DNA of 42,529 nucleotides. Source: a virus. Lineage: Duplodnaviria > Heunggongvirae > Uroviricota > Caudoviricetes. A program made the position numbers. Positions 12,001 through 18,000 of this stretch are shown here, piece after piece (within the stretch, counting starts at the first letter, position 1; each line of letters begins with the position of its first letter). The DNA lies in the IMG/VR virus record IMGVR_UViG_2718218227_000014; one strand, 5' to 3'.

Positions 12001-15000
12001 CGGAACTTATGAATCGTCCCCCGGCAGACCAGCCACCACGGCAAATCACTCTGCACCTGCAGCCGCCGGTCGGCCTCACTCAGCCAGGGCAGACCACCGG
12101 GGTGGCTGTGGACCAGCGCCACAATCTCACCCTGCATTTCTGCCTGCAGCCAGTCTTCCGGCGACATACGGAAATACGCCTCCGGCTCACCGGAGATATT
12201 CACGCAGGGGAAATATCTTTCCCCCTCCGGCGTGCTTACCACGAAGCCGCACGACTCCGCTGGCGCACATCGCCGGGCGTGCGCCAGAATCGCTGATTCT
12301 GTCTGTGTCATGGGATTTACTGCGAAAGTTTGTTAATGGAAAGGAAGCCGCCAAAGTTGCCGACGTTATTGCGGAACTTACAACCGCTCAGGCATTTGCT
12401 GCATTTATCCTTCGTGATATCGGACGTTGGCTGGTCATATTCATCCGCGACCGCCGGACCGTGATAACCGCACTCATCGCCGCGATAGGTCCAGGTGCAG
12501 GTGTTGGCCAGCATGATACGTCCCGGAAAAACAGCGCCGTCCGTTTCCGTCGGCGTGGACAGTACAAAAGAGGCACTCACCGCGCTCAGTTCGCTGCACT
12601 GCTCAATGCGCCAGCGGCTGATCACCTCCTGCTCCGGATCGGCGTCGCTGTTTCCGTTGACGAAGTTCACCGCATCCAGAAAACGGGCGTAAACCTTACG
12701 CCGGACCACCGTTCCGCCGACCAGACTCTGCAGGTCTTCCGCCATCCCCGTGACCATGCCGTGCAGGTTAGAAACCGTCAGTGTCGGACGGGCAGAACTG
12801 CCCTTGCCGTTCAGTTCAAATCCCGTCCCCTGAATGGGGTATGCCTGATACTGCCGCCCCTGCCAGGTAACCGGCTCACCTTTTTCGTTCTGCTCATTAC
12901 AGAAAAAATAACGTTCACCACCGACCTCTGTCAGATCGATTTCCCAGAGCACCGCCTGGGCTGACTGAGTGAGGCGTGTCGTCTCATGATGTGTTTCCTG
13001 TGGAATATCCTGCATCAGAGCCTCCTATGCCACGACCTGTTCAAAATCTGCCGTTATGGTTACCCACAGCGCCCCCACGCTTGCCGACCATTTACGACAA
13101 ACCACCCTGATCGGTTTCCAGTCATAAGGTGGCGTCCACTGAAATGCACGGACGCCACCGTGCCGTTCCAGAAAGGCTTTTAAAGATGGGTGTTCACATT
13201 TACGAACACGTATCGTCACGCTGTAAGTCGACAACTGGTTATTCAGTCCCGCCGCACGACGCTGTTCATAACCATCGCCCAGCTTCACTGTCACCACTTT
13301 CGGCTCTGATACCACATTCATATCCGGGCGCACTTTCCAGTGAAACGTCTCCATTACCGATATGCTCCACTTAACCGACCACCATCACGGGCCTGCTGTT
13401 GCATAAAGTCCGCTGCCGCTTTTTTCCCGAGGTCATAAACCGCCTTCAGGGCAGCCGGACCTATCTGCCCGTTCGTGCCATCGTTATTGATCTCGATGTT
13501 GTACTGCGGGGAAAACATCGCCATACCTGAACCCCCAATATCCGCCACAACCCCCAGCTTACCGTCAGCACCACGACGCAATGGCAGAATGGCTTCAGGT
13601 CCCGCTTCCCCCATCACACCCGCGCCTTTTGCAAAAGCAAAAAACGTCGGACGGTTAACCACCGTGCCACTGTAACGACTCAAATCAGCAGACTGATAAA
13701 TCCCCCCATTGGCATTCAGGGAAAGGCTGCTGAGATCAAATCCCAGTACACTGCCAATCCCTTTTATCGATTTCATCATGGTTGCCTGCGCCAGGATTTT
13801 CGCCATATCTGACAGCACAGAAGAGGTGAAGGATTTGAAATTGAGTTTGCCGGTAGTGACAAAAGTTGCCAGGCCATTTCCCATGTTGCTGAAGGCTGAC
13901 GAGAACACCTGTTCTGCTGTTTCTGCCGTATTATCTGCATCCACGGTAAAATCCTGAAATGCACGCAGGACTCCGTTTTTCCAGTTACCCTGTACAACTT
14001 CAAGCTGTTGCCAGTAACGGCGATTCTCATTCAGTTGTCGGTTCAGGCTCTCCGTCAGCGCCTGCTCGGCCTTTCTGTAGTCATCCGTGTTATATGTCCC
14101 TTTCTGCTCACTATCCCGCCTCAACTGCTCCAGCTGTTGCTGGTATTTCTGGCGAAGACTCAGTTGTACCTGATATTGAACCGCCCCGGGTTTCCTGGAG
14201 AGTGTTTTATCTGTGAACTCAGGCTGCCAGATCATCGTTTCCGATGGAAGCATAATAAGCTTTTTCTGCTTCTGCCGGAGGAGTATGGCCCAGCCTTCCC
14301 AGCAATCGTCGATTGTTATACCAGTCCACCCACGTTAGTGTGGCCAGTTCCACTTCTGCACGGTTTTTCCAGCTCTTACGGTGTATTACCTCCGCTTTGT
14401 AAAGACCATTGATGCTCTCAGCCATCGCGTTGTCATACGAGTCGCCTGTACTCCCTGTTGATGCCAGTAATCCGGCTTCTTTTAGTCGCTCCGTATAGGC
14501 CAGTGACACATACTGAGAGCCTTTATCGCTGTGATGGATGGTGCCAGACGGACGACGGGCCCACAACGCCTGCTCCAGCGCATCCAGCACGAATGTCGTT
14601 TCCATAGACGATGAGACCCGCCACCCCACGATGTATCCGGCAAACACATCAATGATAAACGCCACATAGACGAAGCCCTGCCATGTGCTGACGTAAGTAA
14701 AATCAGCCACCCACAGCTGGTCAGGTCGTTCTGCCACGAACTGACGGTTTACGCGGTCGCCTGCGGCAACGGCTTTCCGGCTGATGGTCGTACGGACCTT
14801 TTTACCCCGGAGAACACCGGCAAGTCCCATAACCGCCATGAGACGTGCCACTGTACATCTGGCCACCCTGATTCCTTCCCGTAACAACTGACGCCAGACT
14901 TTACGCACACCGTACACCTGATGATTTTCATCGTATACGCGCTGTATCTCTCTCTTCAGCCAGTCGTCGTGCTGCGCACGGGCACTGCGTTTATCCGGAT

Positions 15001-18000
15001 GATGTCGCTGTTGCTGACAATGGTAATACGTTGACGGGGCAATATGCAGTTCGCTGCATACCGGTCCGACCCCGTACTGCTCACGCAGCTTATCCAGCAG
15101 TGGCATCATTTTTTCCAGAGGCGGTCGAACTCCGCCTTCGCAAAATAAGCGGAAGCCTGGCGAAGGATATCGTTACTGCGGCGCAGTTCACGATTTTCAC
15201 GTTCCAGCTCTTTCAGACGCTGACGTTCAGCGCTGGTGAGCCCACCATCACCGCCCCCGGTATCCCGCTCATGCTGGCGAACCCAGACACGCAGAGTCTC
15301 CGGCGTACAGCCAATCTTTGGGGCAATGGAACAAATTGCCGCCCACTGTGAGTCATATTCATCCTGACTTTCCAGAACCATACGAATCGCCCGCTGACGG
15401 ACTTCGGGGGAAAAACGAGTATTTTTAGTCATCCTGTTTACCTCTTTCTCAGGGAGTTTAGTCTCCAGGATTTCCGGGGCGGTTCATATCGCTGTCGCTG
15501 CTGATCACCCATACCCACCGTGGCGATATCCAGGTCATGTTGCTGACGCTGAGCGCGCTCTTCTTCAGCCAGTTGACTGGTCAGCTGAATTGTTTTTTTC
15601 TTCAGCTCGTTGAGTGCCGTCTGTTTCTGAAGCTCCTGCTGTTTTACATCCAGCAGCGTCAGTGCCTGAATCAGTTCATCTTTACGGGCCAGCACACTCT
15701 TTTCATCTGCCGTCAGTTTTTTCCCGTCCAGGTCGCTGATGCGCTGCTGCAGAGCCAGAAGCTGTTTACGCGCTTCTGTCATCCTTTCCGTGGCAATGCC
15801 TGCTGACTGTCTGGCAGCAGCAATCTGTCCTTCCACCTGTGCCTGTTGCTGACTGTACTGCAGCAATAACCGGGTGGCCTCATCATTACGGGTTTCGCGT
15901 GTTTTTTTCTTACCGGATGCCAGGGCTTTCTCGTAACGTTCATCTTCACGTTGTATCGCCGCATCCCTGACAGCCTGATCGGCGTACTGCATGGCATTAA
16001 TACGCGCTATTTCACGCTGATGTCGTGCTGCTTCCGTTTCATTCATCCGGTTCAGTGCAGCATTTTCAGCATTACGGCGTTTCTGTTGCTCCTGATAATT
16101 CCGCTCTGCCTGCTCTTTTGCATCCTGCAAATCCTTCTGGCGTTTTTTCTCCTGAAGATCGTTAAGACGCTGCTGATCGTATTCAACCTGAGAAGATGAT
16201 GCCGTCCAGGGGAGTCTTTTCGCCCGCGACACTTTCTCCTGTAAAGCGGCAATCTGTTCATCCAGCGAGTCTTCACGACCAATATTCATGGCCGCATCCC
16301 AGAAACGACTCCACAAATCAGACAGATACTTCAGCGTACTGCCAAGCGCATTGAGGTTATTATCAATATCCGCAGTACGCCGACCGGTTTCCTCTGCCAG
16401 TGCAGACATGGCTATCCGTGCAGCATCACTGGACCGCCCCTGCTCCCCAAGGACGCGTATCTGCTCAAGCTGAGTGGCAGTAAGAAAATGCAGCTCATTG
16501 TCCAGAGCCTTCGCGGCATTTACAGGATCATCCTTCAGCCGCTTAAACTGATTTATGGTATCGCTGACCGACTGGCCAACCGATCGCTCCATCTGTGCGG
16601 CAGCTCTCGCCACCATACCGATATCGTTTCCACGAAATGCACCACTCCCCACCACCTGAGCCAGCGCACCGGCTGCAGCATGTTGCGTGATACCATTCCC
16701 GGAAATAGCACGACTGAGCGTCCACAGCTGCCCGGCAGTGACTCCGGCATAATGCCCCGTCAGCGACAGCTGGCGGTTAAATTCTTCCCCCTCCTTCTGA
16801 CCGTCATACCAGGCTTTACCCAGACCATAGACAGCCGCGGCAATACCGCCAATAACCGCTCCTGGCATCATGCCTTTCGGTGACATCAGTGTGTCTATCC
16901 ACCCGGCACGGTTAGCCAGCGTTATTCCGGATCCCCTCAGCGCACCTAAATTGCCGCGGGCCAGTTCACCTATCAGAACGCCTATCTCCTGACGGGCTGC
17001 TGCACTTTTCAGACCCAGCGAATGCGTGGCTTTTCCTGCCTGCTCCATTTTGCGGATATACACTTCTGCAGCACTGCTTACCCCCAGCTGGGCAGCCTTA
17101 GCACGAAGCAACTCAGAAGAAGAAAGATTCTGGCGGGTTGCCTGCTCTTTAAGCTGACGGATAAACGCCACTTTCTGTCGGGTAGCCTCTTCCTCAGCCT
17201 GTGTAAGAACACGGGTTTTCGCCGTAACCTCAGAAATCAGCGCCAGATAATCCTGCTGACCAATCCCGCCACTGTTTCTGGCCTGTCGGATCTGTTGCTG
17301 AATACGCTGTAATTCCTGCAGCCCCGCACCGGCCTGTTTCACACTGTCAATCTGACGATAAAACGCAGCAGCCGCTTTATCCTGAGCCTCCGCCAGAGCC
17401 ATGGCCTGCGCCTGTTCCTCGCGCATTTTCTGGCTCAGTGCCTCCATACGCTGGCGGGTTTGCTCCACCTCGCGGGCCATGCGTTCATGAGCCTGTGCGC
17501 TCTTCTCCACCGTCTGCGCATGGACGGATGCGGCTGTTGCAGCCGAAGAAGCCGCCTGCATTGTCTGCCGGGCGGCCTGAGTCTGACGCTCCATAAAACG
17601 CTGCATACGGGCAGAAGACCGTTCTGCATCGCTGGCTGCACCATTCAGAAGGTTTTTGATACGGGGAATTTCATTTTTAAACTCTGCCGCATCAATCCCC
17701 AAATCAATGACCAGGTTGGCTATCTGGTCCATAACGCACACCTCCGGAAATACCTTCCCCAAGATGCATCAGTTCTTCGTCCGTTCGCTCCGGTATCCCG
17801 TTCTCTTCCGGTAAAAGGCTGAAATCAGCCACCGCAGCATCACTGCTACCGGACACCATTCTCACGATCAATGCCTTCAGCGAGGCAAACTGCGCATCCA
17901 TCCACACATCACTGAAGCTCTGCATCCGGAAATAATCGCCCCACTCACCAAGCTCAGTGGCCGACATTTCCGACAGCATCCGCCGCCAGTCTGCCCGCCG

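Follow-up and report, generated by a model that had tools for sequence, protein, structure and literature searches.

Here we show that a complete copy of the insertion sequence (IS) IS629 interrupts the tail tape measure gene H of a lambdoid prophage of Escherichia coli O157:H7, with duplication of the trinucleotide TAT at the point of entry. The stretch of DNA that was analysed (the window; 42,529 nt, IMG/VR record IMGVR_UViG_2718218227_000014) is identical (100%) over its whole length to positions 4153748-4196276 of NZ_CP015831.1, from E. coli O157 strain 644-PT8, and holds prophage Sp3 (CP-933K in EDL933) of an O157:H7 sub-lineage, integrated at the lambda attachment site between ybhC and ybhB-bio. 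We consider it highly probable (about 0.95) that IS629 inserted into one tape-measure gene, which is now a pseudogene, and that a fixed prophage thereby went one step further in its neutral decay. This is ordinary insertional inactivation in a fixed, defective prophage, already known in the sense that it is visible in the RefSeq annotation.

The interrupted gene and the inserted element

Deletion in silico of the IS together with one TAT produces an uninterrupted minus-strand open reading frame (ORF) of 3066 nt and 1021 aa, running from an ATG at 17732 to a stop at 13354. One base, G1789A (D597N), separates the rejoined gene from the intact gene of O157:H7 strain TR01 (WP_000371994.1) and from Sakai ECs_0837, both of which have the same chromosomal surroundings. 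At the unoccupied site, TR01 has ...CCTGATAT followed directly by CGCTG..., with one TAT. This one-nucleotide match, together with a lambda H alignment that is colinear across the junction, bears out the suggestion of a preliminary description of this DNA that the two flanks are parts of one gene, and nothing in the sequence evidence contradicts the explanation by a single insertion. The event would have consisted of one IS629 copy entering codons 748/749 of a 1021-codon H gene, with duplication of TAT.

Other details of that description required correction. It had placed the H fragments in the same frame across the TAT; this holds for the gene after excision with one TAT dropped, but not for the window as it stands, in which the IS and its target-site duplication (TSD) amount to 1313 bp (2 mod 3), leaving the fragments in different reading frames, and the H pieces are therefore out of register until excision. 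The in silico rejoining that it proposed does give a contiguous tape-measure ORF, but one whose 1021 aa agree only approximately with the expected lambda H length (853 aa). Similarly, the reconstruction is free of stops with one TAT dropped, but joining the fragment coordinates as first listed retains both copies and creates an in-frame stop (CGA TAA). We considered this stop as evidence against a single gene and rejected it as an artefact of keeping both TAT copies. The parts of the interrupted gene and of the element are as follows.

13354..14176, minus strand: H 3' fragment, residues 749/750-1021, with Tape_meas_lam_C (811-885) and the C-terminal NNDGTNGQIGPAALKAVYD helix region
14174..14176: TSD TAT, copy adjoining the H 3' fragment; a single TAT in the TR01 empty site
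14177..15486, minus strand: complete IS629/IS1203 (RefSeq annotation), its transposase genes running in the same direction as gene H
14177..14201: terminal inverted repeat downstream of orfB, 22/25 positions complementary to the other end
14219..15109, minus strand: IS629 orfB, 296 aa, with HTH_21 and the rve DDE catalytic core
15035..15151, minus strand: ALIL frameshift-stimulating pseudoknot (Rfam RF01497), covering the orfA/orfB overlap
15106..15432, minus strand: IS629 orfA, 108 aa, with HTH_Tnp_1
15462..15486: terminal inverted repeat upstream of orfA, pairing with the repeat downstream of orfB (22/25)
15487..15489: TSD TAT, copy adjoining the H 5' fragment, a direct repeat of 14174..14176
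15438..17732, minus strand: H 5' fragment as now translated, residues 1-749 plus 15 IS-encoded residues (764 aa), with TMP_2 and TMP_4

The position of the element had been predicted to the base: a complete IS629 (IS1203 isoform) occupies exactly 14177..15486, or 1310 bp, and its identity is supported by the protein domains, the ALIL pseudoknot (121.5 bits against a gathering score of 50), the TSD and RefSeq, which names it "IS3-like element IS1203 family transposase". Its first letters are TGAACCGCCCCGGG... and its last ...CCGGGGCGGTTCA; the inverted ends (TGAACCGCCCCGG...) are imperfect, matching at 22 of 25 bp, and three copies of the end motif are present in the window, with none expected from shuffled sequence. 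The predicted 3-bp TAT duplication is likewise present on both sides of the element and single in the empty site. RefSeq marks a programmed frameshift, and orfB is predicted to be expressed as an OrfAB fusion by -1 frameshifting. The element is identical to RefSeq-named IS1203-family elements of O157 genomes and shares 95-96% identity with other IS629 subtypes; a length of about 1310 bp with imperfect ends, overlapping orfA and orfB, and a TSD of 3-4 bp all place it in IS629, within the IS3 family. IS629 is known to move by copy-out/paste-in transposition. It is present at about 20-30 places per genome. According to a published survey, its target duplications measure 3-4 bp, and 62% of copies lie in prophages (PMC3271280).

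The assignment of the interrupted gene as H could also be confirmed. Pfam domains in the rejoined protein comprise TMP_2 (228-426, 4.4e-49), TMP_4 (616-693, 2.7e-16) and Tape_meas_lam_C (811-885, 4.7e-22). A BLASTP comparison with lambda gpH returned 26% identity (E 1e-56) over lambda residues 120-853, colinear across the insertion point, and the N-terminal 55 residues align with lambda gpH as well. The gene lies between G/T and M/L homologues, as annotated in the identical locus, TR01, Sakai and lambda. These domains, the homology to most of lambda H and the gene order together place the protein among the lambda-type tape measures. Its nearest neighbours are listed below.

13025..13354, minus strand: gpM-like minor tail protein gene, directly downstream of H
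17704..18033, minus strand: tail assembly protein T homologue, overlapping the H start
18042..18428, minus strand: tail assembly chaperone G homologue (annotation of the identical locus)

Consequences for the H protein

Genetic work on lambda has established that H is needed to form the tail initiator and that both ends of H are required. In the window, the stop codon of the interrupted gene is at 15438-15440, inside the IS; translation of H would run 15 codons into the element and then stop, giving a product without the tail-tip helix. The truncated product lacks the last 272 residues, and with them Tape_meas_lam_C and the NNDGTNGQIGPAALKAVYD segment, which is nearly invariant. In the lambda virion, residues 818-842 of gpH form a three-helix coiled coil on the gpI trimer, in the lumen of the tail tip (PMC10721106); these align to residues ~986-1010 here, downstream of the insertion. 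Loss of H function and of tail assembly can reasonably be expected, because the truncated product would be without the C-terminal tip-anchoring region.

The H 3' fragment has no start codon of its own within the H sequence, and RefSeq carries two "incomplete" tape-measure pseudogene fragments flanking the IS1203-family transposase. A mechanical minus-strand ORF of 299 aa spans 13354-14253; it begins with an ATG that lies within the element, 77 nt from the IS end, and continues in frame into the H 3' fragment.

Prophage decay and alternative explanations

Sp3 was defective before any IS629 arrived in this lineage. The assignment to Sp3 (CP-933K) follows from the integration site, the nle genes (nleB2, nleC, nleH1-1 and nleD in the window), the missing immunity/replication region and the split portal gene. 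Several defects are found without any IS in TR01 and Sakai: the split portal, a truncated bet, a missing N-cI-cro-O-P region and the lpxR insertion. The portal gene (window 22881-24462) consists of a 336-nt and a 1125-nt piece, and as the same split is common to TR01 and Sakai, it is an older defect, present in all versions of Sp3 examined. At window ~35450-36700 (L003:4815-5698), ninE abuts a 5'-truncated bet on the opposite strand, so that the prophage has none of the early regulatory and replication region (N, cI, cro, O, P). The lpxR lipid A deacylase gene lies between the nin region and Q. Asadulghani et al. described Sp3 as being without repressor (cI/cro) and replication (O/P) functions and as defective in portal and bet/recombination, and saw no excision, replication or packaging of this prophage (PMC2669165). 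The practical effect of the H insertion is therefore small, since the prophage was already without repressor, replication functions and a whole portal gene.

Two further copies of IS629 lie in the window, and the three (4942-6251, 14177-15486 and 31238-32547) are base-for-base identical.

4942..6251, plus strand: IS629 copy 1, in the side tail fibre gene (stf), TSD GTG; inverted relative to the copy in H
31238..32547, minus strand: IS629 copy 3, interrupting the gene for antiterminator Q, TSD ATCC

Among 5426 complete E. coli genomes, both H junctions were present at 100% identity in ten (319, 350, 644-PT8, 180-PT54, 7636, Z1834, 1613, NCCP 13892, NCCP 13894 and NCCP 13906), and the empty H site was found in 1802, usually once per genome. 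The stf and Q sites are occupied in only two of these ten carriers, 644-PT8 and 180-PT54, which makes the H insertion the oldest of the three. An eleventh genome, DEC4E, still has the IS and its junction with the 3' part of H, but window 15490-20307 (4.8 kb) is missing; the deletion removes the 5' part of H, the genes T, G, V and U, the tail gene after them and part of the following gene. In DEC4E the TAT is retained (L010:6151-7463), and the new junction reads TAT followed by CGC..., with a 3-nt CGC microhomology. IS-adjacent deletions of this type have been reported with IEE-dependent excision of IS629 (PMC9943667). After the H insertion, some descendants would thus have acquired two more IS629 copies, in Q and the tail fibre gene, or an IS-adjacent deletion of 4.8 kb.

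IS629-family elements also occur elsewhere in the same gene in other strains (positions are window equivalents).

15805-15807: insertion in F8798 and E203449, same orientation as the window's H copy, TSD GAC
13914-13916: insertion in NZRM4165, same orientation, TSD CTG
16287-16289: insertion in ERL03-1416, inverted, TSD CAT
13986-13988: insertion in ERL04-3476, inverted, TSD TAC

O157:H7 strain F8798 and the non-O157 strain E203449 (Mali) carry these elements at the identical nucleotide (L005:1696-3005, L007:1696-3005), and the two elements differ at 52 of 1310 positions; the shared position may mean that the site is an insertion hot spot, or that one IS subtype has replaced another. The New Zealand O157 strains (L006, L008, L009) contribute three further independent insertions in H, two of them inverted, so that H is a recurrent site of insertion.

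Several other explanations were weighed against a single insertion into an already decaying prophage. That the junctions reflect an assembly artefact, or a chimera produced by recombination between IS629 copies whose flanks were never contiguous, is conceivable in that IS629 is a multi-copy element (three identical copies in the window, some 20-30 places per genome) that could both mislead assemblers and support IS-IS recombination. However, the element is bordered by matching direct repeats of 3 bp, its flanks when rejoined come within one nucleotide of the intact Sakai/TR01 gene, and identical junctions recur in ten independently assembled complete genomes, which effectively refutes such an origin. 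We give equally negligible weight to the proposal that split H still works, its two fragments being expressed separately and assembling into a functional ruler. The 299-aa ORF that leads from the IS end into the H 3' fragment could in principle supply the second chain, but no Shine-Dalgarno-like sequence precedes its ATG and no supporting evidence was found, so that it was rejected as an expressed C-terminal fragment; RefSeq, moreover, flags both parts of the gene as incomplete pseudogenes. To our knowledge, there is no indication that a tape measure can function as two chains.

A reversible switch, in which IEE-promoted excision of IS629 would restore a working H, is more plausible mechanistically, yet still very unlikely. 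Two reports describe IEE promoting IS629 excision in O157 and restoring lacZ in O121 (PMC9943667; PMC9397093); the TSD is intact here, the flanking H sequence is otherwise undamaged, and exact removal of the IS and one TAT would restore the ORF. A restored H would nevertheless be of no use to a prophage without its replication/immunity region and with a split portal gene, Q and stf are interrupted as well in the window's strain, and descendants show further decay (the DEC4E deletion) rather than reversion. The least improbable of the alternatives, though unlikely in our estimate, is that the tape-measure gene is hit more often than by chance, through target preference or selection for tail inactivation: at least five different sites within the same 3-kb gene are occupied in other strains, in both orientations, and one of them holds IS variants 52 positions apart in two strains. 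On the other side, the gene is a large target within prophage DNA, where 62% of IS629 copies lie (PMC3271280), and the five sites do not share any evident target motif. The broader proposition that IS629-family elements prefer the Sp3-type tape-measure gene as a target, or are selected there, with six independent events at five or more sites in complete genomes and one nucleotide position occupied by two IS subtypes 4% apart, seems to us slightly more doubtful still; if true, it would point to target-site preference or to selection against tail production from fixed prophages.

For the single insertion followed by neutral decay, which we continue to favour, two points weigh on the other side. 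The functional argument applies lambda genetics and structure to a homologue of only 26% identity. In addition, the insertion history is drawn from genome records only, and no paper on the exact site was found: in the sequencing paper for 644-PT8 (Shaaban 2016), all mentions of IS629 concern other genes and the PT8/PT54 lineage terms do not appear, and Rump 2011 (PMC3271280) makes no mention of Sp3 or of tail genes.

Significance and relation to known systems

The case is a further documented instance of IS629 degrading a fixed O157:H7 prophage that carries effectors, and has little import beyond strain typing. For the latter purpose, the lineage-specific distribution of the site (ten genomes and one deletion derivative among those surveyed) means that it could be used for IS-printing or as a phylogenetic marker. 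The nested pattern amounts to a small timeline of decay, with the H insertion first, followed either by the Q and tail fibre insertions or by the 4.8-kb deletion. With the insertion in place, the prophage can also no longer provide co-resident lambdoid prophages with an intact tail module, whether by recombination or by complementation.

Compared with lambda gpH, the rejoined protein shares the N-terminus, the TMP_2 core, the C-terminal domain with its near-identical NNDGTNGQIGPAALKAVYD motif, and the genomic setting of G/T upstream and M/L downstream. It differs in being some 20% longer (1021 against 853 aa) and in showing an identity of only 26%; by the ruler principle, the longer tape measure would imply a tail proportionally longer than that of lambda.

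Sakai Sp3 has the same integration site and the same gene order with nleB2, nleC, nleH1-1 and nleD, and its H gene is one nucleotide apart over 3066 nt. It contains no IS629, and H, Q and the tail fibre gene are intact, but int is truncated, whereas the window prophage combines its three IS629 copies with full-length int and xis. In the window, the integrase (1071 nt) and excisionase genes are located at ~40600-41860 (L003:8593-9859); in Sakai Sp3, int is a pseudogene of 771 nt and xis is not annotated (L011:3198-3968). The two lineages therefore reached the "fixed" state by different routes.

With the IS629/IS1203 insertions already known from O157:H7 prophages (Ooka et al. 2009; Rump et al. 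2011, PMC3271280), the H insertion has in common the element itself, a TSD of 3-4 bp, the bias towards prophages and the outcome, namely gene inactivation followed by IS-adjacent deletion. It departs from the survey of Rump et al. in its position: the H site is empty in Sakai, and the ten carriers exclude Sakai, EDL933, EC4115 and TW14359. Absent from these four surveyed genomes, the occupied site is therefore lineage-specific.

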